NCBI GenBank assembly: GCA_030040915.1
Contig: JASHSI010000083.1
Coordinates: 1-41,043 of the forward strand
DNA length: 41,043 nt
Source of the DNA: Thermoplasmata archaeon
Lineage (GTDB): Archaea; Thermoplasmatota; Thermoplasmata; Lutacidiplasmatales; UBA184
Direction: 5' to 3'
Position 1 is the first letter of the stretch. The number at the start of each line of letters is the position of its first letter. The notes under the pieces are model-generated. The model was not told the origin of the DNA and did no database searches. It worked only from the letters and a program-made list of their open reading frames with translations. Below are positions 2,949 through 35,640 of this stretch, one piece after another. A program made the translations under genes and the position numbers.

Positions 2949-4088
2949 TCACGACTCGATCCCCATCTCCGCGAGCTTCTCCGGGAGGTAGTGGTCGGTC
3001 ACGTAGTTGAGCCCGTACTTCGCGAGCGACTGCTGCTCGGCCTTCTTGCCGTTCTTGAGCATCAGCTCGATCTCGGAGCGCCACTCCTGGGTGGAGAAGC
3101 GGGGGTCGGTGAGCTCCGCTTGGAGAGCCTTGACGTCCTGGTCGCTCAACTTGTCCGACGGGAGCTTGTAGTTCTCGATGTCGGAGGCGGTGACGCCGAG
3201 GAACTCCGCCTGCGGGGTGGCGAGGTAGTGGGAGATGTGGGCCGTCTTGATCGCGCCGTACGCCACGCTCGCGAAGATCCGGAACGACCAGGGATCCCCG
3301 TCGGTGAAGACCACGACGGGGAGCTTCAGCTCCTCGTTGATCCGCTTCAGGAACCGCCGGGTCGACCGGGCCGGCTGCCCCTTGAGGTGGAGGAGGATCG
3401 CGTCGTGCTTCTCGTCGAAGCCGTTCTCGGCCAGGCGGTCGACCATGCCGCCGCACTCGATGGCGATCACGAACTTCGCGTTCGTGCCGACGAACTCGAT
3501 CTTCTCCTTCTCGACGTTGAACGGGAGCGCGTACCCCCCGTCCCCCACGTCGTCGCGGCAGTTGAACTTCTTGACGACCCCCTTGCGGTTCGTCTCCTTG
3601 ATCGTCAGGTCGCCGATCACCGAGGCCCCGTTCTCCTCGGGGTGGAGGCGGAAGTCCTCGCGGAGGCGCTCGCAGAGCACCTCGAGGTCCTCGATGAGGA
3701 GGTTCGATTCGTCCTCGCTGTGGAACTTCCCCTCCTCCCACCCCTCCGAGATGTAGTAGAGCTCCCGGAGCGTCGAGGTCTTCGAGTCCCGGGCCATCTC
3801 GTTGATGAAGTCGACGAGGTAGAACGTCCGCAGGAGCATGAGCGCGCCGTCGAGCTTGCGGGCGCTGCGCGTCCCGAGCGCCCGGCCGAGCCGCCAGACC
3901 CCCTCGCGCATCTGGAACTGCAGGTTCTGCTTCGTGCGCAACGGCAGGCGCATCCGGGGAATCTCCCCCCGGTCGAGCTGGTCGTAGATCTCCCCGGCGA
4001 GGCGCTGGGTCGGCTTCAGGGCCTCGGGGGGCTCGGTCCGGGCCGGCTTACTCGTCGTCTTCGCTGCGCGCGCTCGTTTCGGCGGCAT
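2949..4088 (-). CDS. top6A: DNA topoisomerase VI subunit A
   Basis: [12 protein letters not shown] (catalytic Tyr region) and Toprim motifs FVIAIECGG and [14 protein letters not shown]. The ATG at 4088 overlaps the top6B 3' end by 41 nt. Confidence 0.93.
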
Positions 4089-6057
4089 CGTAATCCACCT
4101 CCGCTTCGGCCCCCGCGGGGGGCGCCTCGAGCCCGGCCTCGGCCGCCTCGATGACGGCCCGCGGCAACCGGACGTCCCAGTCCCCGGGGAGGGGCTCGGC
4201 CCCGAGGAGGTGCCCCTCGTCGACGCCGGCGACGAACCAGGATGGGTCGGACGCCTCGAGCTCGGTCTTCGCCGGGAAGGTGGCGGAGACCTTCGTCCGG
4301 CCGCTCGGCGGGAGCTTCTCGAGCGTCCACCAGGCCCGGCCGAGCTCGGCGTCGGTCCCGTCCGGGGCGGGCTCGAACCGGCCGAGCGGGAACAGCTCCG
4401 CGGGCAGCTCGACGAACAGCTCGAGGACCCGCGCCCTCGGCGTGTAGTTCGTGATCTCGGCGTCGAGACGGACCCCCTCCGGGGTCGCCTCGACCTTCTC
4501 CTCGAGGTTCACCACGTCCATGATCCGCGTGATCACCGGGGTGAGGTCGGGGACCGGCTTGCCGACGAGATCGCTCGTCTTGGTGGCGAGCTTGGGGAGG
4601 ATCTTGAGGATGATGTCGAACTTCTCCTGGGCGAACGCCCGGCGGTTGCGCCGGGCGAGGTGCGTCTTCAGGTGGCGTGCGGCGACCTGGAGGGCGAGGG
4701 TGAGCTCCCGATCGATCTCCGGGTCCTCGGCGACCGCCTCCTTCGCCTCGCTCGTGAACGGGACCTTCGCGGAGGCGAGGTGGACGAGGAGGAGCGCGGG
4801 CCCGATGGGCAGACCGGCCCCGCCCTTCTGCTCGAGTCCGTAGCGGCGCCAGTCGAGCGTCTGGACGGCGGTCGTGATCGCGCAGGCGCCCTGCTGGAAG
4901 AGGAGGGGGACCCGGTTCGCGAACCGAAGAAGCTGGATCGGCTGGTCGGCCGGGAGGCCCCCGCCGTAGACGAGCCCCACCTCGACGAGGAACGGAAAGC
5001 CGCCCCGGACCTTCGGCGGTCGGCTGACCGGGGGGGCGTAGAACTCCGGCCGGACCTCCCCGAGGACGTTGCGGAGGCCCCGCTTGATGAGCACCGGGCC
5101 GATCGGCGACAGGGATTCGGCGGACGGCGGGAGCAGCTTGACCTCGTGCATCGCCGCAAGAAGGGCCTCCAGGCGCTCCCCCTGGACGGACCCGGGCGCC
5201 TCCTTGCCCGTCAGCCCCGCCTTCCCGACGATCTCGCTGGCGGCCCGGGAGCTCACTCCCGCGAACTGCTTCGCGAGGAACTCCCCGAGGGTCTTCGGTC
5301 CCGGGAGCTTCAACCGGTAGGCGAGCTCGCCGAGCTCGAGCCCGTAGGGGTGAGGGGGGACCTCCTTCGGGACGGGGGGGATCTCGGTGGAGGCCCGCTC
5401 GTACGTGATCCGCGTCCCGTCCGGCTCGACGAGGACGAGGCGGGCGTGGGGGTTCACGATCGCACTCCCGCGCAGGTACTCGTACGGGGACTGACGGCCC
5501 CGTTGGTACTTCGCCTTCAGGACGAGCGAGATCGAGGTCCCGCTCTCCCGGTCCCAGAGGAGGAGGTCGTCGGCGACGACCTTCGGGAGGTTCTTCTGGG
5601 TGTCGAGAAGGAGGTCGAGGACGTGCGCCGCCTCCTCCTCGCGGACCTTCGAGATCACGTGGGCCGGCCGCGCCGTGGTGAGGCCCGCGTAGAGGACGGC
5701 GGCCGAGATCCCGATCCCCTGCTGCCCCCGCGACTGGCGGTTCGCGTGGAAGCGCGAACCGTAGAGGAGGCGGCCGAAGACGTTCGGGACTTCCCGCTTC
5801 AGGATGCCGGGGCCGTTGTCCGTGACGGTGACCTGGAGCCGGTCGGGCCCGGCCTTCGCGATCTCGACGAGGACATCGGGAAGCACGCGGGCTTCCTCGC
5901 ACGCGTCGAGGGCGTTGTCGACCCCTTCCTTCACGGTGGTCAGGAGGGCCCTCAGCGGGTTGTCGAAGCCGAGGATCTGACGGTTCCGCTCGAAGAACTC
6001 GGCGACCGAGATCTCCCGCTGCTTCGACGCGAGCTCTTCCGCCAGCGTCCTGGGCAC
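4048..6057 (-). CDS. top6B: DNA topoisomerase VI subunit B (start re-called to GTG 6057; track ORF runs to 6717)
   Basis: GHKL/Bergerat motifs [20 protein letters not shown] and [10 protein letters not shown]. The homologous N-terminus (M)[21 protein letters not shown] begins at an in-frame GTG. A TATA-like CTTATAG is centred about 29 nt upstream. The upstream part of the track ORF is Arg/Pro-rich and overlaps the C-N hydrolase gene. Confidence 0.85.
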
Positions 6058-6082
6058 AGTGAACGCGACGATAGCGCGGGCG

Positions 6083-6089
6083 CTATAAG
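6083..6089 (-). promoter_or_regulatory. TATA-like box (CTTATAG on minus) for top6B, implying a leaderless mRNA
   Basis: Centre at 6086, with the proposed GTG start at 6057. Confidence 0.4.
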
Positions 6090-6110
6090 CGTGAGCTTCG
6101 ACTGAGCGCC

Positions 6111-6959
6111 CTACCGAGGAGCCAGTGAGCCCAGGGCCGCGGGATCGGTCGGGGGGCCCCTCGGAGCGCGCGAGGCCACGTCGCGCAGCACGGGACGGGC
6201 CCGGCGCCATCGGGCGGCCGTGGCGAGATCGATATCGGCCCGGACGATCCGCCCGCCCTCCCGCGGCGTGGCGGCAGATACCGGCTCGAGGGGGAGCTCC
6301 TCCCCGCGGGCGTCGAGGGCCACCGAGCCGCCCCCGAAGACTATCCCCTCCTCGGCCCCGACGCGGTTCACGTAGACGAGCGGGACCGCGTTCTCGATGG
6401 CCCGGGCCGGCAGGATCCGGTCGAAGAGCCGCCGCGAGGTGACCGGCGCCGCCGAGATCACCGCGAGTAGCTCCGCCCCGCCAAGAGCGAGCTCCCGGCT
6501 CACCTCGGGGAAGAACGCATCGTAGCAGATCTCGACCCCGAGGAGGGTCCCGAGCGCTCGGATCGGTCGGCTCCGATCGACGGGAGTGAACTGGACCCCC
6601 TCCTCGAACGGTCCGAACGTGGGGAGGTAGCGCTTCGCCTGCACGAGGATGGTGCCATCGGGCTGGGCGAGGAGGGCCGCGTTCCACACCTCGCCGGGCC
6701 GTTCGGGGGAACGCCACGGGGCCCCCACGACAATGGCCTGACGGTGCGTGCGGGCGATCTCCCCCAGACGCTCCACCAGGAGATGGCCGGGTCCGAACGC
6801 GGCGTGATGCACCCGGTCCCCGACCCGGTAACCGGAGAGGTAGAGCTCGGGGAAGATCGCGAGGTCGGAGGGGGAGGCGGCGATCGCCGCCTCGAGCCGG
6901 GAGAGGTTCTCCTCGGGCGCGTGGAGGGACGGCGCGAGCTCGGCGAGGAGTACGCGCAT
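6111..6959 (-). CDS. carbon-nitrogen hydrolase (nitrilase superfamily) protein
   Basis: Glu-Lys-Cys triad contexts [16 protein letters not shown] and [12 protein letters not shown]. The ATG at 6959 shares one nt with the upstream TGA (TGATG). Confidence 0.85.
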
Positions 6960-22503: not shown

Positions 22504-23043
22504 TCACCGGTCCGGCCGAAGCGGAGCGCCGGCGGCCGACCCGATTGGCTCGACCTCCCTCAGCTCGGCGGCAACCACTTGGACGCCCCACGCCCTCGTG
22601 GACTGGTCGAGGGTGTCCCGTGCGCGCGAATCGATCCCGAGCCGGTCGGCGAGGATATCGTCGAGCTTCACTCCTCCGAGGAGGGCCTGGAACGTGGACT
22701 GGGTGAGGTCGATCACCGCTTGCCTGTAATTTGCGGCCGCGAAGACCGCTTTGACCGGGTCCACGACCTTGATGGTGACGGCGGCATCGACGCGGGCTCG
22801 CGTCCGGTCTTGCGTGATGACCTCTTGCCGCGGGACCGCGAGCACCTGCGCCCGCACGTCGACCTTCGCCACGTAGGCGATTGGCGAGATCGGGTTGAAT
22901 CTCGTCCTCTGGTACCGTCCGAGCCTGGTAACGACCCCCTGCTGATAGGGAAGGATCTGGACGAAGGACCGGCTCAGGACGACGACGAAGACGACCAAGG
23001 CCATGACTACCACGACCGCCAGGTAGTCCGACGTACCATCCAC
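22504..23043 (-). CDS. short SPFH-domain paralogue (179 aa; ends right after the SPFH core)
   Basis: ILPYQQGVVTRLGRYQRT, QVLAVPRQEVITQD and WGVQVVAAELREVEP parallel the downstream long paralogue. The coiled-coil region is missing. Confidence 0.75.
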   Translation of the reverse strand: MDGTSDYLAVVVVMALVVFVVVLSRSFVQILPYQQGVVTRLGRYQRTRFNPISPIAYVAKVDVRAQVLAVPRQEVITQDRTRARVDAAVTIKVVDPVKAVFAAANYRQAVIDLTQSTFQALLGGVKLDDILADRLGIDSRARDTLDQSTRAWGVQVVAAELREVEPIGSAAGAPLRPDR

Positions 23044-23154
23044 CCCGGACCCCGGTGGAGGGCCGGTCGGGCCGAACCTCCCAGGCTACTTATCCGTGGG
23101 GAAACGGCGGAACGGACGTCCTCGGAGCTCGCTCGAACCGGGGGTCCGGTCGGG

Positions 23155-23634
23155 TCAGTCCGACGGCCTCGGAGGGGTCGGGTCGACGGGTTCGACGCGA
23201 AGGGAGACTCCTTCCCCGTGGACCACCCGGACATGGGTGCCCGCCGGGATTGGCTGGTCGGCGATCGCCGACCAGATCTCGGATCGGATGCGGACCTTCC
23301 CCTTGAGCGTGTGCGGGACGACGGCCACCGTGACGATCGCCGATTCCCCGATCAGGCCCGCGGTCGTCGTGCTCATCGGTTTGGTGGGTTTGCCAATCCA
23401 CAGCAGGTAGCGCATCTCGATCAGAGTCGCTCCGATCGCCACTAGGATCACGATGATCGGCCCGAGGATGCTGTCGAGGAGGACGTCGGGGAGGAGCAGG
23501 TAGAGGAACCCCGCGACCATCAGGATCGTTCCCGGGATGAACAACAGGACGCCGGGATGGGCGAGCTCCAATGCGAGGAGGATGATCCCGATGACCACGA
23601 TCGCGATGCCGAACGGCACGTCGACGCTGACCAT
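23155..23634 (-). CDS. NfeD-family membrane protein (short form, no protease domain)
   Basis: About 3 N-terminal TM helices plus a C-terminal OB-like segment GESAIVTVAVVPHTLKGKVRIRSEIWSAIADQPIPAGTHVRVVHGEGVSLRVEP. Classic position upstream of SPFH genes. Confidence 0.8.
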   Translation of the reverse strand: MVSVDVPFGIAIVVIGIILLALELAHPGVLLFIPGTILMVAGFLYLLLPDVLLDSILGPIIVILVAIGATLIEMRYLLWIGKPTKPMSTTTAGLIGESAIVTVAVVPHTLKGKVRIRSEIWSAIADQPIPAGTHVRVVHGEGVSLRVEPVDPTPPRPSD

Positions 23635-25785: not shown

Positions 25786-26991
25786 ATGGCGAAGATCGTA
25801 CCCCTGGCCGAGCGCGAGCTCGCCTGGGCGCGGGGACGGTTCGCCGAGTACTACGGACGCGTGCGGGTCCCCCCACCCCCGGTACTCCCCCGGCGCGAGT
25901 TCGCCGCGTTCCCCTTCGCCGAAGGGACGTCGATGCGGCGGCACGCGGCGCTGCCGACCGAATCGGAGTTCCGGCAGTTCCTGACCGGCTTCCTCCCGCG
26001 GCACGTCTACTACTCGTCGGCCTACTACGCCGAGCCGGACCATCCCACGATGGCGTCCAAGGAGTGGCTCGGCGCCGACCTCATCTTCGACCTCGACGCG
26101 GACCACCTCAAGGGCGCCGAGTCGATGTCCTACGCCCAGCAGCTCGCCCTCGTCAAGCGCCAGCTGGTGCGGCTCTACGACGACTTCCTCCTCCGCGACT
26201 TCGGCATCGACCCCGCCCAGGCGCAGATCGTCTTCAGCGGCGGCCGCGGCTACCACGTCCATGTCCGCGAGGAGCGAATGCGCGGCCTGTCGAGCCCCGA
26301 ACGCCGCGAGCTCGTCGATTACCTCGCCGGCACCGAGTTCGACACCGCGAGCGTCATCGTCGAGGAGCGGCACAAGGACGTGGCGGGCCTCCCCGCCCGG
26401 ACCTTCCGCCGTCTCGCCGGTCCGGCCGCCCCCGGTTGGCCCGGGCGCGCGACCCGGGGGCTCTTCGAGACGTTCGAGCGCTGGAGGGCCCAAGGGACCG
26501 AGGCGGCGGCCGCCGAGCTCATCGCCCAGGGGATCGAGCGCCGGGCGGCCCGCCAGCTCGCCAAAACCCTCGTCGAGGAGGGCGGCGCGGCGGGGATCGA
26601 ACGGACGCTCCGGCTCGATGGTTCGAGCGAGAAGCTCTCGACCGAGCTCTTCCGGCACGTCCTCAAGGGGGCGGCGCTCCAGATGCAGGGGGAGACCGAC
26701 GCTCCGGTCACGACCGACATCCACCGGCTGATCCGGCTCCCGGGCTCCCTGCACGGCGGGACGGGCCTCAAGGTGCAGCCGATCCCCCGGGAGGAGGTCG
26801 AACGGTTCGACCCGTTCCGCGACGCGCTCGCCCCGGTCGGACCGGCCGGCCCGGTGGAGGTCGTGCTGAAGGGGACGGTCGACCACCCGTTCGATCCGCC
26901 GGTCCGAGGCACCGCGGGCGAGAAGGTCGCCGTGAGCGGCCCGGTCGGCCTCTTCCTGGTGCTCAGGGGGGAAGCGGAGCTTCCGGCTTGA
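25786..26991 (+). CDS. priS: DNA primase small (catalytic) subunit
   Basis: DLIFDLDADH (catalytic DxD) and FSGGRGYHVHV. Confidence 0.9.
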   Translation: MAKIVPLAERELAWARGRFAEYYGRVRVPPPPVLPRREFAAFPFAEGTSMRRHAALPTESEFRQFLTGFLPRHVYYSSAYYAEPDHPTMASKEWLGADLIFDLDADHLKGAESMSYAQQLALVKRQLVRLYDDFLLRDFGIDPAQAQIVFSGGRGYHVHVREERMRGLSSPERRELVDYLAGTEFDTASVIVEERHKDVAGLPARTFRRLAGPAAPGWPGRATRGLFETFERWRAQGTEAAAAELIAQGIERRAARQLAKTLVEEGGAAGIERTLRLDGSSEKLSTELFRHVLKGAALQMQGETDAPVTTDIHRLIRLPGSLHGGTGLKVQPIPREEVERFDPFRDALAPVGPAGPVEVVLKGTVDHPFDPPVRGTAGEKVAVSGPVGLFLVLRGEAELPA

Positions 26992-32104: not shown

Positions 32105-32275
32105 CTACGCGCTGAAGCTCTCCCGGTAGGTGAGGAGATAGAATCCGCCGACGATCATCACGGTGATGAGCCCGAGGATCGCGAGCGGGTTCGAGGCGAA
32201 CTTCCAGACGGTGATCCCGATCAGGATCGCCGGCAACAGGAACGCGGCAAGGACCGTGAACACCCGGCCGTCCAT
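32105..32275 (-). CDS. 56-aa two-TM microprotein, too short for the supplied ORF track
   Basis: Manual translation gives MDGRVFTVLAAFLLPAILIGITVWKFASNPLAILGLITVMIVGGFYLLTYRESFSA*. TATA-like CTTTAAG is centred 30 nt upstream of the ATG. High GC3. Confidence 0.5.
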   Translation of the reverse strand: MDGRVFTVLAAFLLPAILIGITVWKFASNPLAILGLITVMIVGGFYLLTYRESFSA

Positions 32276-32301
32276 GGACCGGGGTCCGACGCCCTGACCC
32301 T

Positions 32302-32308
32302 CTTAAAG
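32302..32308 (-). promoter_or_regulatory. TATA-like box (CTTTAAG on minus) for the 56-aa ORF
   Basis: Centre at 32305, ATG at 32275. Confidence 0.4.
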
Positions 32309-32376
32309 CCTCGGCGAGCGCCGACGGGTCCCGATCCGGGTCGGGCGCCGTTCGCTGCCGGGCGCGGACCTCTCGC

Positions 32377-32835
32377 CTACGTGGCCGTCCGTCGAACGGT
32401 GCGCTGGATCGCCGACACCCCACCGGCCACCGGTGGCTTCCAGAAGAACAGGTGGGTCCCCCCGTAGGCCGCGAGCAGGGTCCCCACGAGGAAGCCGGCC
32501 CCGAGGGCGAACGGGAGGTTGATCAGGAACAGGACGATCCAGATCCGCGCGCCGTCGAGCCGATGGCGGCTCGGGAGGGCGTAGGCGAGGAGCGCGATGA
32601 GGGCCACGAGGCCGCCGGTGACGATCATCGAGAGTCCCTGAGCCCCGGGGTCCCCCGGGAAGACGATCGAGTAGACGAGCCCGAGCTGCGCCCCGTACGC
32701 CTCGACGAGCGCTCCTTGGACCCCGATGAGGAACCCTCCGGCGATCGTGGCCACGACCGGGGCGACGGGGCCCGTCCCGGCGGCGAAGTACTCGCGCGGG
32801 TGCGGGATGTACGACGGCTTCGGACCCGCGCTCAC
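32377..32835 (-). CDS. polytopic membrane protein (152 aa, about 4 TM), family not recognised
   Basis: Hydrophobic segments VAPVVATIAGGFLIGV, LSMIVTGGLVALIALLAYAL, IWIVLFLINLPFALGAGFLVGTLLAAYG. GTG start is preceded by the SD-like GGGGGGAT. Confidence 0.7.
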   Translation of the reverse strand: MSAGPKPSYIPHPREYFAAGTGPVAPVVATIAGGFLIGVQGALVEAYGAQLGLVYSIVFPGDPGAQGLSMIVTGGLVALIALLAYALPSRHRLDGARIWIVLFLINLPFALGAGFLVGTLLAAYGGTHLFFWKPPVAGGVSAIQRTVRRTAT

Positions 32836-32928
32836 CGATCCCCCCCAGCTCCGCCGGACGGTGGTAAGGCTTCCGGGACCCGGGTCGTCGGAGGATCGAG
32901 GCCCGCCGTAGGGGCACGGTCCCCGGGG

Positions 32929-33840
32929 CTAACCGGTCGGGTCGCCCGCGGAGGGGCGGAGAACCTCGAAGGTGAGCTCCACGCCGTCCGGTCGAGGTTG
33001 AGCGGCGACCGGGGCGAGCCGGTGCGCGATTGGACCGATCGGTTCGATCTCCTCCGTCGGTTCCTCCCCCTTGGGGAACAAGGACCGGACGGGACCAGCG
33101 CGCGCGATGGCGGCGCTCCGCTCGGCGCGGAGGACCGCTTCGGCCGGCTGGATGAGCTCGCGCTCGACGAGCCCGGCGACGACGTCCCCCCAGTACCGTT
33201 CCAGGTGGGCGATCGGAAGCCGACGGGCGGCCCGCGCGAGCGATTCGTTGTCGAGTACCTGGAGCGTGGCGTGGCCGCGCTCCCGCTTCTCCACGAACGG
33301 CTCGACGAAATGCAGGCGGGCGAGGGTCCGCTCGGCGAGGGCCCGGCGCTCCCCCTCGCACTCGAACGGCTTCACCACGAAGAGCTTGAGCGCGCTCGAG
33401 GCGCGGGCGGCCGATTCGAGGACCCAGGGGAGGGCCCCGGTCCCGCTGCCACCGCCCAAGCTCGCGACAATCGTGACGAAGTTCGCCCCTTCAAAGACCC
33501 GGTTGAGCGCCGGGACCGCCGAGCGCGCGAGCTCCGAGCCGACCGCGGAGGAACCCCCCGTGTCCGGATCCGCGCCGGACTCCGGCGCGAGGCAGATCCG
33601 CCGGTCGAACTCCTCGAGGTCCTGGACCCGGGCGTCGCAGTTGATCGCCACCGTCTCAAGGTACGGCAGGTGCCGACGGGCGACCGCCCGGCCGACCCGG
33701 ATGCCCCCGCCGCCCACCGCCGCCAGGACGAAGCGCAGGTCGTGTCCGAGGCGGGTGGTCTCGAACACCTCCGCGTCGTACCCTTCGGCCGGGCCGAATC
33801 CCTCCGCATGATCTCCCGAGCGTCCCTCCTCCCCCTGCAT
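32929..33840 (-). CDS. FtsZ/tubulin-superfamily GTPase-domain-only protein (303 aa)
   Basis: T1 loop AAVGGGGIRVG, VAINCDA, tubulin signature SLGGGSGTGALP, KPFECEGERR and VLDNESL align colinearly with the FtsZ N-domain. ATG 33840 follows the SD AGGTGG by 7 nt. The track start GTG 33849 is an alternative. Confidence 0.8.
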   Translation of the reverse strand: MQGEEGRSGDHAEGFGPAEGYDAEVFETTRLGHDLRFVLAAVGGGGIRVGRAVARRHLPYLETVAINCDARVQDLEEFDRRICLAPESGADPDTGGSSAVGSELARSAVPALNRVFEGANFVTIVASLGGGSGTGALPWVLESAARASSALKLFVVKPFECEGERRALAERTLARLHFVEPFVEKRERGHATLQVLDNESLARAARRLPIAHLERYWGDVVAGLVERELIQPAEAVLRAERSAAIARAGPVRSLFPKGEEPTEEIEPIGPIAHRLAPVAAQPRPDGVELTFEVLRPSAGDPTG

Positions 33841-33878
33841 TGCAACCACCTACGTTCCGCCGTGTCCCGCGCCGCCGC

Positions 33879-34382
33879 CTACCTGCCGACGACCCCCTTG
33901 CGCTCCAGCTCCTCGCTGGTGCGCCCGAGCGCGCGAAGACGGTCCCGGGCCTCCGCCGCGCCCTTCACCGAGGCGCGGTGGCGTCCGACCGTCTCTTGGA
34001 CCTTCAACTCGAGCTCGCCGCGACGGACGAGCTGCGCCAGGAGGTCGGCGAGCTCCTGGCCGTTCGAGGCGAGCTCTCCGTACGCCTGGAGGGTCTCGAC
34101 CTCCTCCTCCCGCAGCCGGACCGGGACCTCGACGAGGTCGAGGGGCGAGGCCAGCGCCCTCGCGGCAGGGATTGCCTGCGCGGCGCGTTCGCGAAGGAAG
34201 TTCTGCAGCGCCGCCCGGACGATCTCCGAGCGGTTCCTGAACTCCCCGCTCGCGACGAATGAATCGACGAGTTGAAGCTCCCGGATGTTGCACCGGACGG
34301 CGATCCGCTCATCCTCGGGCCCGATCCGGTGGGCCCGGCGAGCCCGCTCCTCGGGTCCGTGGTCTTCCGGTTTGTCGAACAC
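33879..34382 (-). CDS. ribbon-helix-helix (CopG-like) DNA-binding protein with a second RHH-like module and coiled-coil tail
   Basis: ERIAVRCNIRELQLVDSFVASGEFRNRSEIVRAALQNFLRE is a textbook beta-alpha-alpha RHH. VEVPVRLREEEVETLQAYGELASNGQELADLLAQLVRRGE repeats the pattern. GTG start. Confidence 0.8.
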   Translation of the reverse strand: MFDKPEDHGPEERARRAHRIGPEDERIAVRCNIRELQLVDSFVASGEFRNRSEIVRAALQNFLRERAAQAIPAARALASPLDLVEVPVRLREEEVETLQAYGELASNGQELADLLAQLVRRGELELKVQETVGRHRASVKGAAEARDRLRALGRTSEELERKGVVGR

Positions 34383-34412
34383 GACGGGGTCGAGTTATGC
34401 AAATTCCATCTA

Positions 34413-34419
34413 CTTAAAC
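34413..34419 (-). promoter_or_regulatory. TATA-like box (GTTTAAG on minus) of the RHH / FtsZ-like operon
   Basis: Lies in the most AT-rich patch of the window (34395-34425), centred 34 nt upstream of GTG 34382. Confidence 0.45.
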
Positions 34420-34540
34420 CAAAGCGTAGTCGCGCGTCGAAGCGGGTTCGATCGCCCCGAGCGCCGGTTTTTCGACGTGTCGAACAAGTTCCGACCCGCC
34501 GGATCCGCGGAGGGTTCGAGATGCGACCGCAGTATAACCG

Positions 34541-34564
34541 CCCGCGCGCGCGGGTTCCGGAACC
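34541..34564. repeat. two overlapping perfect palindromes: cccgcgcgcgcggg (34541-34554) and ggttccggaacc (34553-34564)
   Basis: Read directly. They lie 24-47 nt downstream (minus sense) of the stop of the Zn-ribbon membrane protein gene. Confidence 0.6.
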
Positions 34565-34587
34565 GTCCGGGCGTGGGCGCGGACGTT

Positions 34588-35640
34588 CTACGGGGACTTC
34601 GACGACGCGAGCGGCGCCGAGCTCGCCGGCTGCGCCGGGGCGAGGCTCTTCCCGCACTTCCAGCAGGTCGTCTCGTTCGGATAGACGACCGCCTGGCAGT
34701 TCGGGCAACGCATCTCCGTCGCACCCGGGGAACCACCCCCAGCGGCCCCCGGCGGCGCTCCGGCGGGCGTCGGGGTCCCGTCCGTCGGGGTTGGCTGGGA
34801 GGGTCCGGCGCCCTTGCGGTTGCGCTCGCGGCCCTTGAGGAAGGCGTAGAAGAGCAGCGCGATCAGAAAGACGATGCCCGGATAGATGAAAACCACCTCG
34901 TAGGCGGTCGGCAGGAGGAAGAGGACCACGGAGCCGAACGACCCCGAGACCGGTCCCTCGATCCCCGAGTAGCTGCCGTCGTAATCGAGCCAGATGCCGG
35001 TCAGGTTGTGCGGACTCGCGTCGTCCTCGACCACGGCCTCAAGGTCCCACCACCAGATGTCGGTCCCGGGGAGGTTCCTGGAGTAGCTCACCACGGTCGG
35101 GGCGGCCGGGTTCGCGCCGAATTGGATCGTATCGGTGTAGAACGGGTAGGAGCTCCCGCAATCCGGGGAAGAGTTCGACGTGGCGCCGGGGCAGTCGGTG
35201 ACGTAGAAGGTGACGTTCGTTATCGTCGTGTTCACGGGAAGGTACTGAGGGTAGATCGTGGCACTGAAGTTGTAGAGGCCGCCAGCGGCCCCGACGAACG
35301 GGGTGACGAGGGCGTCCTGGATCACCGGCTGGCCGTTCCCGTAGGGGGCGGCGCCGTTCGAGGTCACCGCCGGGGTCGGGACTCGGAGCTCGTCCGTGTA
35401 GATCACCGTGAACACCGGGGCCGTGATCACGAGCGTGGCGATCCCGAGAATCGCGAGCGGCTTCAGTCCGCGCTGGCCGAGGAAGATCGGGAGGGCGAGG
35501 CCGAAGATCAGGAGGGTCAGGATCGCGAGGTACGGCCCGAGGTAGAACAGGGTCCCGGCGAGGGCGAGGACCCCGACGATTAACAGGACGACGAGGCCGA
35601 ACCACGACCTCGCGAACGTCCGCCAGCTCATGGCCGCCAT
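34588..35640 (-). CDS. membrane protein with sequon-rich extracytoplasmic domain and C-terminal zinc ribbon (350 aa; start re-called)
   Basis: From MAAMSWRTFARSW: 3 N-terminal TM helices, a roughly 170-aa domain with NFS, NTT, NVT, NSS and NLT sequons, further TM helices, a KGRERNRKG stop-transfer, a Pro/Gly linker, then CPNCQAVVYPNETTCWKCG. Confidence 0.75.
   Translation of the reverse strand: MAAMSWRTFARSWFGLVVLLIVGVLALAGTLFYLGPYLAILTLLIFGLALPIFLGQRGLKPLAILGIATLVITAPVFTVIYTDELRVPTPAVTSNGAAPYGNGQPVIQDALVTPFVGAAGGLYNFSATIYPQYLPVNTTITNVTFYVTDCPGATSNSSPDCGSSYPFYTDTIQFGANPAAPTVVSYSRNLPGTDIWWWDLEAVVEDDASPHNLTGIWLDYDGSYSGIEGPVSGSFGSVVLFLLPTAYEVVFIYPGIVFLIALLFYAFLKGRERNRKGAGPSQPTPTDGTPTPAGAPPGAAGGGSPGATEMRCPNCQAVVYPNETTCWKCGKSLAPAQPASSAPLASSKSP

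Follow-up and report, generated by a model that had tools for sequence, protein, structure and literature searches.

Contig JASHSI010000083.1 of a soil-dwelling Thermoplasmata archaeon (GenBank assembly GCA_030040915.1; Lutacidiplasmatales, UBA184) is 41,043 nt long and is referred to below, at its full length, as the window. On its minus strand lie two adjacent genes, here named A and B, the first encoding a protein of the ribbon-helix-helix (RHH) type resembling the archaeal regulator CdrS and the second a truncated paralogue of the division GTPase FtsZ. An earlier reading of the sequence, the original prediction, had proposed that the two form a unit, and they do constitute a real, conserved operon, present throughout one clade and recurring in other genomic neighbourhoods. 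The operon is composed as follows:

33879..34382, minus strand: gene A, 167 amino acids, GTG start; RHH protein of CdrS-like type, extended at the C-terminus by a helical or coiled-coil part
33846..33851, minus strand: Shine-Dalgarno-like AGGTGG, 5 nt ahead of the ATG of B
32929..33840, minus strand: gene B, 303 amino acids, ATG start; truncated FtsZ paralogue

Two further open reading frames (ORFs), C and D, follow downstream of B, all four being present on the minus strand at the coordinates originally given, and a fifth gene, E, lies directly upstream of A. In a genome of ca. 70% GC, the in-frame GC content at third codon positions (GC3) is 0.89–0.95 for A, B, C, D and E, and as this matches the flanking core genes PAC2 and apgM, all five are probably coding. 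The flanks themselves, with PAC2 and FEN1 to one side of the locus and apgM beyond its opposite end, were named correctly, judging by synteny with Pfam-annotated loci. The same holds for the AGGTGG element (33851..33846), for the 93-nt spacer between B and C and for a TATA-like GTTTAAG at 34419..34413, which belongs to a conserved TATA box described below. The spacer between A and B, on the other hand, was put at 29 nt and is really 38 nt when counted from the ATG of B at 33840. A 29-nt spacer corresponds to an alternative GTG start at 33849, giving a protein of 306 amino acids, with this GTG sitting inside the AGGTGG element; homologues of B align starting from the ATG.

Protein B matches Pfam only at PF00091, the Tubulin/FtsZ GTPase domain, over residues 43–178 (E = 2e-12, 48 bits; gathering score 33 bits). 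Against the FtsZ equivalog TIGR00065 it scores 68.3 bits, below the cut-off of 295.2 bits, canonical archaeal FtsZ proteins reaching 332–404 bits. FtsZ sequences of the PDB align to residues ~40–180, and that of M. jannaschii FtsZ1 to residues 40–213, identity to FtsZ being about 25–30% and restricted to the N-terminal domain, while PhuZ matches at E = 0.006 only. An AlphaFold2 (AF2) model built from 118 homologues (mean predicted local distance difference test score, pLDDT, 85.7; confident over residues 30–250) comprises a Rossmann-type GTPase domain followed by a long helix, residues 210–247, equivalent to H7 of FtsZ, with residues 250–303 disordered. When this model was compared with the PDB by Foldseek, some 195 columns aligned to FtsZ with a root mean square deviation of 2.5–2.9 Å. 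The C-terminal domain PF12327 was not found in B by Pfam, AF2, Foldseek or the PDB sequence alignments, and is absent from all 120 members of the B family listed. B is, in line with the original prediction, a GTPase domain without a normal C-terminal domain, and does not fall within canonical FtsZ1, FtsZ2 or CetZ.

Alignments of the B family reveal conservation of the nucleotide-binding elements T1 (GGGG), T2 (N-C-D), T4 (GGGxGxG), T5 (PFxxExxRR) and T6 (LDN). The tubulin signature of B itself reads GGGSGTG, with G129, G130, G133 and G135 invariant in the family, and its T2 and T5 elements read NxD and PFxxEGxRR. The NxDxxD pattern of the T7 loop is not present in B; beneath the canonical T7 loop LINLDFAD there aligns a conserved post-H7 stretch P-A-E-A-x-L-(E/D), in full PAEAxL(E/D)A, which is predicted to be helical and contains an invariant E234, acidic residues following H7 being conserved in the family. 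Truncation occurs directly after this T7-equivalent stretch, and one relative, P0266, retains GLDAMD at the T7 position. The remainder of the protein is a tail made up of a proline-rich, variable segment and, at its end, an invariant E-L-T-x-E (ELTFEV) motif. Since the canonical archaeal FtsZ proteins in the comparison set terminate in GI(D/E)(Y/F/V)(I/L), this tail looks like a retained linker with a C-terminal peptide similar to the anchor-binding peptide of archaeal FtsZ.

Placement of B in FtsZ1 or FtsZ2 was dropped, as its phmmer scores are flat against PN/EG-type and LDNN/ERAR-type FtsZ; FtsZ2 was recognised there by its motifs, and the one label taken from a source is ‘FtsZ 1’ for Methanothrix. 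Among canonical proteins, B is matched best by an FtsZ whose cluster takes its name from Candidatus Natronoplasma, a member of the Thermoplasmatota, a match compatible with an origin through duplication within the phylum. Neither the window nor the 10-kb loci compared below yielded a second tubulin signature, no targeted genome search having been made, and FtsZ is not mentioned in the Lutacidiplasmatales genome paper or its supplements. Signatures degenerate with respect to GGGTGTG occur in the relatives P0251 and P0252 (loci L087, L088) and L086:1055-1927, in which the RHH partner and the gene order are retained; such lineages may no longer bind GTP. With several relatives carrying degenerate tubulin signatures, a nucleotide-independent scaffolding role of the B family is possible.

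The top NCBIfam match of protein A is the CdrS model NF058555 (E = 3e-6, 27 bits; cut-off 100 bits). This model is also the best match of all 22 RHH partners tested, reaching E = 5e-8 at best and remaining below the cut-off throughout, with ParD matching 8 partners, aCcr1 4 and NikR 4. Pfam matches of A to RHH_8 and RHH_1, spanning residues 22–70, lie below the gathering scores, and ParD, VapB and RelB give weak, sub-threshold matches that are rarer than CdrS. The AF2 model of A (pLDDT 79.5; predicted template modelling score 0.41) contains the helices 33–45 and 51–70, which form the RHH pair, a further helix 92–105 and then a 50-residue helix, 111–161. The linker after the RHH helices holds a beta-like VEVPVRL segment, and it was this segment, together with two helices, that prompted consideration of a tandem-RHH pseudo-dimer; an intramolecular ribbon is not seen in the AF2 monomer and the pseudo-dimer was not retained. 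The former description of A as a tandem RHH and coiled-coil protein consequently stands for the RHH-type pair and the long helix, its tandem element being unconfirmed. A Foldseek search with the model returned nothing significant (best ParD and NikR, MatP at E > 1). Relatives of A measure 129–175 amino acids and all possess the helical C-terminal extension.

The B family is narrow. Among the top matches listed from a search of 5.8 billion proteins, nearly all have ~300–310 amino acids and every named one is a ‘Thermoplasmata archaeon’, while a profile search of 1.84 billion representatives gave 21 matches at E < 1e-30, followed, after a gap, by generic FtsZ at about 75–108 bits. A scan with one genome per species identified 59 Thermoplasmata metagenome-assembled genomes (MAGs) with at least 46% identity to B, including Candidatus Lutacidiplasma silvani and UBA184; past 46% identity there is a sharp drop to 23–37%, at which level the matches are canonical FtsZ. 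For comparison of gene order, 62 loci were assembled, L001–L003 from contig look-ups and L004–L062 from the genome scan, with L002 and L005 representing the same contig (ENA contig_5858), leaving 61 distinct loci. A homologue of A, 165–167 amino acids in length, is located directly upstream of B on the same strand in 59/59 loci that have an upstream flank, the three loci without a visible A homologue being those in which the contig end cuts the flank. The gap between the two genes is 29–45 nt in all loci but one, and in nearly all of them a purine run of GGGGTGG type precedes the start of B.

Within the clade, the wider neighbourhood of apgM, E, A, B, D, PAC2, FEN1 and FTCD is conserved too, so that adjacency of A and B inside the clade says little, taken alone, about function. 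The locus, which is chromosomal and single-copy, is inherited vertically and keeps a fixed synteny with core genes, and its single copy and fixed position argue for a housekeeping role.

Stronger evidence comes from divergent and separate short FtsZ-like proteins of 248–321 amino acids, obtained from the representative search, which place an RHH plus short-FtsZ pair in at least four other genomic contexts with GC contents of 42–63%:

L089, GC 63%: short FtsZ of P0253 type, 314 amino acids; upstream RHH protein of 160 amino acids; NDK, Sua5 and M24 peptidase genes upstream, RNA polymerase downstream; 56-amino-acid D homologue on the same strand
L084–L086, GC 46–49%: short FtsZ of P0282 type, 290–305 amino acids; upstream RHH protein of 136–162 amino acids; PTH2 upstream, HSP20 and CDC48, or others, downstream; two-transmembrane protein of 63–66 amino acids on the opposite strand
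L090, GC 42%: short FtsZ P0266, 291 amino acids; upstream RHH protein of 129 amino acids; QueF, carbamate kinase (AA_kinase) and HisRS downstream; no microprotein
L091, GC 53%: short FtsZ P0285, 248 amino acids; upstream RHH protein of 130 amino acids; SCP2-domain gene upstream, DCD-like and hydrolase genes downstream; no microprotein

Of these distant loci only L090 could be given a taxonomic affiliation, a gene next to its pair clustering with a protein assigned to ‘Candidatus Thermoplasmatota archaeon’. Common to the RHH partners is the motif (I/L)x(V/L)R...(L)..(I/V/M)D(S/T)F...F.NRSE(F/I)(V/L)R.A, and they are homologous across lineages, as demonstrated by profile-profile comparison with hhalign (96.6%, E = 5e-10). 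Since the pair has persisted through several rearrangements, there is good evidence that the RHH protein and the short FtsZ are functionally coupled. The representative search additionally returned P0262, P0264 and P0265, which are single polypeptides of 731–840 amino acids containing two complete FtsZ proteins in tandem, connected by a low-complexity linker.

The region controlling A was surveyed over 220 nt upstream of the gene in 57 loci. Most of it cannot be aligned, with the following elements standing at fixed positions (given for the window, with distances from the A start):

34532..34538, minus strand: distal TATA-like box GTTATAC, 156 nt ahead of the A start; at -154 to -158 in 54/57 loci
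34474..34486, minus strand: operator-like box 2, TGTTCGACACGTC, at -104
34411..34419, minus strand: proximal TATA box GTTTAAGTA, at -36 in ~50/57 loci
34395..34403, minus strand: AT-rich TTTGCATAA, downstream of the proximal TATA box
34372..34382, minus strand: box 3, GTGTTCGACAA, which overlaps A's GTG start; in 55–56 of 57 loci

Box 2 corresponds to TGTTCGACACGTCAG at -104 in 46–52 of the 57 loci, GTTCGAC being found in the -105 bin in 52/57, and a related GTTCGAC(A/C) occurs at -125 in 30 loci. The AT-rich stretch corresponds to an (A/T)TTTGCATAG element from about -21 to -13. With the TATA box at -36, the 5′ leader of the A transcript would be very short. The distal GTTATAC box would be either a second promoter or part of the control region; if a distal promoter, which it could be, it would put a transcript start near the -125 GTTCGAC box. 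The stretch between GTTATAC and A showed no ORF, no Rfam family and no stable RNA fold. That the conserved 5′ region might hold a small RNA or a structured leader was rejected for want of an Rfam match and with a fold z-score of -0.08, and an upstream mini-ORF beginning at box 2 likewise, the preceding codon often being CTG or CCG. The N-terminus of A is an invariant MFD followed by a variable, disordered stretch, the invariance arising from the overlap of box 3, GTGTTCGACAA, with the start codon; the first three codons of A seem to be constrained as DNA and not as protein.

The boxes are concentrated at this site, with a GTTCGAC density of 11.75 per kb upstream of A versus 0.57 per kb elsewhere in the loci, a ~20-fold difference, and only three further occurrences of the 9-mer TGTTCGACA in 587 kb. 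The operator box is a near-palindrome, TGT-N3-ACA. The window contains four copies of GTTCGACA where 0.9 would be expected, two of the four being operator boxes; the other two, at 4614 and 26337, were considered as further targets and set aside as probably due to chance, lying inside the predicted ORFs 4048..6717 and 25786..26991. Related boxes stand upstream of the distant RHH genes, namely TGTCCGACA twice in L089 and TGTCTGACA in L091, and inverted pairs of TGTCCTACA or TGTCATACA precede the RHH genes in L084, L085 and L090. Fixed, symmetric boxes of this kind fit the needs of an autoregulating RHH dimer, making them a candidate operator.

The boxes also bear on two other explanations. DNA segregation, after the logic of the ParM-ParR-parC and TubZ-TubR-tubC systems and as originally proposed, would make A an adaptor bound at the boxes and B a nucleoside triphosphatase (NTPase) motor that binds A by its tail and moves or tethers DNA. 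ParR has an RHH fold, and the order of an RHH adaptor followed by an NTPase, with sites flanking the promoter, is that of ParR-parC; the long C-terminal helix of A would furthermore suit oligomerisation. The flexible tail of B, ending in a conserved motif, has a counterpart in TubZ (PMC5322520). A centromere-like iteron or repeat array was, however, not found, just two or three operator-like boxes flanking the promoter, and the locus is not on a plasmid or virus but is chromosomal, in fixed core synteny, so that the segregation proposal was not upheld. B moreover lacks the C-terminal domain, which in filaments of the tubulin family forms part of the longitudinal interface, the nucleotide motifs of some family members are degenerate, and CdrS, the best family match of A, is a transcription factor. 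Taken together, a segregation function appears distinctly improbable.

The second explanation is a built-in division inhibitor or toxin-antitoxin (TA)-like pair, in which B, as a ‘bottomless’ FtsZ, would cap the filaments of the host, with A as repressor or antidote. An RHH gene in first place, an effector in second, a short spacer and autoregulatory boxes do resemble type II TA loci, and the weak ParD, VapB and RelB matches of A point the same way. In principle an intact nucleotide face combined with a reduced opposite face could cap filaments, and overexpression of a truncated FtsZ paralogue inhibits division in Agrobacterium (bioRxiv 10.1101/2025.09.29.679267). Unlike patchy, mobile TA modules, the locus is single-copy, vertically inherited and conserved at a fixed site in 59 species; the family-wide best match of A is CdrS and not an antitoxin, and no toxin fold is present. 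This explanation is very unlikely to be correct.

The neighbouring genes are the following:

32377..32835, minus strand: gene C, 152 amino acids; polytopic membrane ORF
32301..32308, minus strand: TATA-like box CTTTAAGA, promoter of D
32105..32275, minus strand: gene D, 56 amino acids; microprotein with two transmembrane (TM) segments
34588..35640, minus strand: gene E, 350 amino acids; membrane protein with a C-terminal zinc ribbon

Gene C, with three to four TM segments predicted, a GC3 of 0.93 and a weak match to DUF6114 only, has no homologue detectable by tblastn in any of the 62 related loci and was ruled out as a member of the cassette. The spacer between B and D (window 32276..32928) takes unrelated inserts of 260–4000 nt in six other loci (L001, L010, L023, L050, L059, L060). 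As no locus has a homologue and other genomes carry different inserts there, C is a window-specific insertion at a hot spot between B and D. The membrane protein said to be co-transcribed within the unit is thus found in this window alone, and of the syntenic trio originally put forward the RHH and FtsZ-like pair holds (59/59) and the membrane ORF does not (0/62).

Gene D fares better, being a microprotein with two predicted TM segments, arranged as a hairpin, and a TATA-like box of its own, as was claimed, and conserved. In 60/62 loci B is followed on its own strand by a D homologue of 54–62 amino acids, usually after a gap of 23–141 nt, with a TTAAGAG or TTATGAG box ~30–35 nt before the ATG in most B–D spacers. 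The homologues share the pattern M.GR..P..L..T..F.SNP..L..M..G..YL..Y..F and are also present in L088 and in L089, the latter a different neighbourhood. The microprotein genes beside the P0282-type pairs (L084:5924-6124, L085:5921-6121 and L086:1938-2129, all on the minus strand) are convergent and lie 5–10 nt past the short ftsZ; homology between them and D was considered and rejected, not being detectable by hhalign (1%). The linkage of D to the pair is weaker than that between A and B, with L089 supporting it.

The product of gene E has ~4 TM segments and an extracellular part, and its Pro/Gly-rich linker leads to a zinc ribbon at the C-terminus (weak DZR and Zn_Ribbon_1 matches). It is directly upstream of A in the window, and a homologue occurs within 5 kb upstream in ~40 loci, often with intervening genes, so that E is linked only loosely to the A–B module. 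In combining a membrane anchor with a disordered linker and a zinc ribbon it recalls CdpC, which anchors FtsZ1 to the membrane in Haloferax (bioRxiv 10.64898/2026.07.16.738847), and CdrL, the second regulator at the haloarchaeal cdrS locus, bears a double zinc ribbon (PMC7439475). Elsewhere in the window (22504..23634, minus strand), an SPFH/Band 7 gene adjoins an NfeD gene, an ordinary membrane-scaffold pair unrelated to the RHH-FtsZ module.

These membrane proteins raise the possibility of a membrane-remodelling or cell-shape module apart from cytokinesis, with B, tethered by its tail to D or to another membrane protein, as a GTP-regulated switch or scaffold on the analogy of CetZ or the FtsZl families, and A as no more than a local repressor. 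A two-TM microprotein adjoins B in three lineages, including the non-homologous, opposite-strand one of L084–L086, the zinc-ribbon membrane protein E is nearby, and membrane remodelling has been proposed for FtsZ-like families whose genes are embedded among those of membrane proteins (PMC2875224). Canonical Z-ring filaments are, in addition, argued against by the missing C-terminal domain. On the other hand, L090 and L091 have no adjacent microprotein, D is served by its own promoter, the CdrS-like identity of A points to division control, and homology to CetZ or to the architecture of FtsZl1 was not found. Such a module seems rather unlikely.

With about an even chance of being right, the A–B locus may be an autoregulated, Thermoplasmatota-specific variant of the archaeal RHH-ftsZ division operon, with B serving as an accessory division or membrane factor. 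In this operon A, an extended CdrS-like RHH protein, would bind the 9-bp TGTnnnACA boxes as a dimer or, via its long C-terminal helix, as a higher oligomer, occupying the site at about -104 (often also that at -125) and the one over its own start codon. Binding would autoregulate the A–B transcript, which is expected to begin just past the GTTTAAGTA TATA box, and B would be translated off the same mRNA, 38 nt downstream, behind the AGGTGG element. B is most likely a GTP-binding accessory or modulatory subunit, which could dock by its nucleotide face and its tail onto FtsZ-type filaments or membrane anchors and which would not be expected to build canonical filaments alone. D, transcribed from its own promoter directly downstream of B, is a candidate membrane partner. 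What is observed is the structure and spacing of the operon, the folds, the conserved residues and tail motif, and the operator-like boxes; that A binds DNA, that B binds GTP and interacts with FtsZ filaments, SepF, anchors or D, and that the module acts in division is inferred.

Several observations weigh against this division-operon variant. A falls far under the CdrS cut-off (27 versus 100 bits) and has nearly three times the length of CdrS, and the phmmer scores of B, flat at about 60–70 bits against FtsZ1 and FtsZ2 types alike, do not favour FtsZ2 over FtsZ1. Some short-FtsZ relatives have tubulin signatures as degenerate as GGEAGTE, GGETGSS and SGGASGSE, and GTP binding may not be universal in the family. 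As to the membrane partner, D has its own promoter and its linkage in the main clade could largely mirror general synteny; the P0282-type microprotein, of similar size and topology, has no homology to D detectable by hhalign, and an adjacent microprotein gene is lacking in L090 and L091. The accessory role of B is itself an assumption. In a bolder reading, the RHH protein, the truncated FtsZ and the microprotein would be a minimal machine complete in itself: the half-FtsZ might assemble head-to-tail by its nucleotide face and T7-like helix, with the RHH protein coupling it to DNA and the microprotein to the membrane, and replace FtsZ2 or all canonical FtsZ in division or in coupling the chromosome to the membrane. 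There is little likelihood that this is so; if true, the tubulin family's C-terminal domain would be dispensable for a cytomotive or positioning function.

FtsZ-based division in archaea is understood only in part, and nearly all that is known comes from haloarchaea, while the Thermoplasmatota are abundant, uncultured archaea of soil and sediment for which no cell-biological data are known. B amounts to a natural experiment on the two halves of tubulin-family proteins, the nucleotide pocket being kept and the domain that forms half of the filament interface lost. If B is accessory, it would be a natural capper or modulator of FtsZ filaments, and thereby an endogenous negative or tuning regulator of archaeal division. 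Pairing with an extended CdrS-like regulator suggests a greater age and plasticity for the RHH-FtsZ regulatory unit than can be seen from the haloarchaeal example, and the positionally fixed candidate operator, TGTTCGACA, makes A directly testable as a regulator.

Comparison with described systems helps to delimit the module. Canonical FtsZ (TIGR00065, PF00091 with PF12327) shares with B the GTPase fold, the tubulin signature, T1–T6 and H7, as well as a disordered tail with a conserved terminal peptide, but differs in possessing the PF12327 domain and a canonical NxDxxD T7 loop, at the position of which B has its acidic, T7-like stretch. No description of a truncated or short FtsZ in the Thermoplasmatota was found in the searchable literature, the coverage of which is incomplete. 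Truncated FtsZ paralogues are known in the Hyphomicrobiales, such as FtsZ1 and FtsZ3 of Agrobacterium, which appear to tune division and not to drive it (bioRxiv 10.1101/2025.09.29.679267). Like B, these are maintained, shortened paralogues; unlike B, they are bacterial and of independent origin, and the preprint describes no RHH partner, nor does its abstract indicate loss of the same region as in B.

Divergent FtsZ-superfamily proteins, FtsZl1 and FtsZl2, occur in operons with predicted membrane proteins, FtsZl1 having an FtsZ-like N-terminal domain without T6-H7, then a long coiled coil and, at the C-terminus, an alpha-helical domain (Makarova and Koonin 2010, PMC2875224). Membership of B in these families was rejected, since the architecture differs: B has ~300 amino acids, keeps the LDN of T6 and H7, and ends in a disordered tail. 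The TubZ-TubR-tubC and ParM-ParR-parC systems resemble the module in setting a small, site-specific DNA binder beside an NTPase of a cytomotive family with a flexible tail. They differ in that TubZ has two domains, TubR is a winged helix-turn-helix protein and ParM is actin-like, whereas B has a single domain and A is an RHH protein, and in being plasmid- or phage-borne with multi-repeat centromeres, in contrast to the chromosomal core synteny without an array seen here. From type II TA systems the module is set apart by its fixed syntenic site in 59 species, a partner of FtsZ fold and the sub-threshold level of its antitoxin matches.

The closest known system is the cdrS-ftsZ2 operon of Euryarchaeota. 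There, CdrS, an RHH regulator of ~60 amino acids, is co-transcribed with FtsZ2 and required for division, the locus being widely conserved in archaea (PMC7439475, PMC8406309). The likeness lies in an ftsZ-family gene directly preceded, on its own strand, by an RHH gene (with co-transcription of A and B deduced from their spacing), in CdrS as the best curated match of the RHH domain, though below the cut-off, for 22/22 partners and in promoter-proximal, operator-like symmetric boxes. The differences lie in an RHH protein of 130–170 amino acids here, with an extra helical C-terminal half, versus ~60 in CdrS, and in an FtsZ partner whose C-terminal domain is missing altogether and whose score stays below the FtsZ equivalog cut-off. 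The original prediction knew of no described module of an RHH protein with a truncated FtsZ; this holds for the truncated FtsZ and the extended RHH protein, which are new, and not for RHH-ftsZ pairing as such, which is known as cdrS-ftsZ2. The novelty of the A–B module accordingly lies in the joining of a truncated FtsZ with an extended RHH regulator and not in the pairing.

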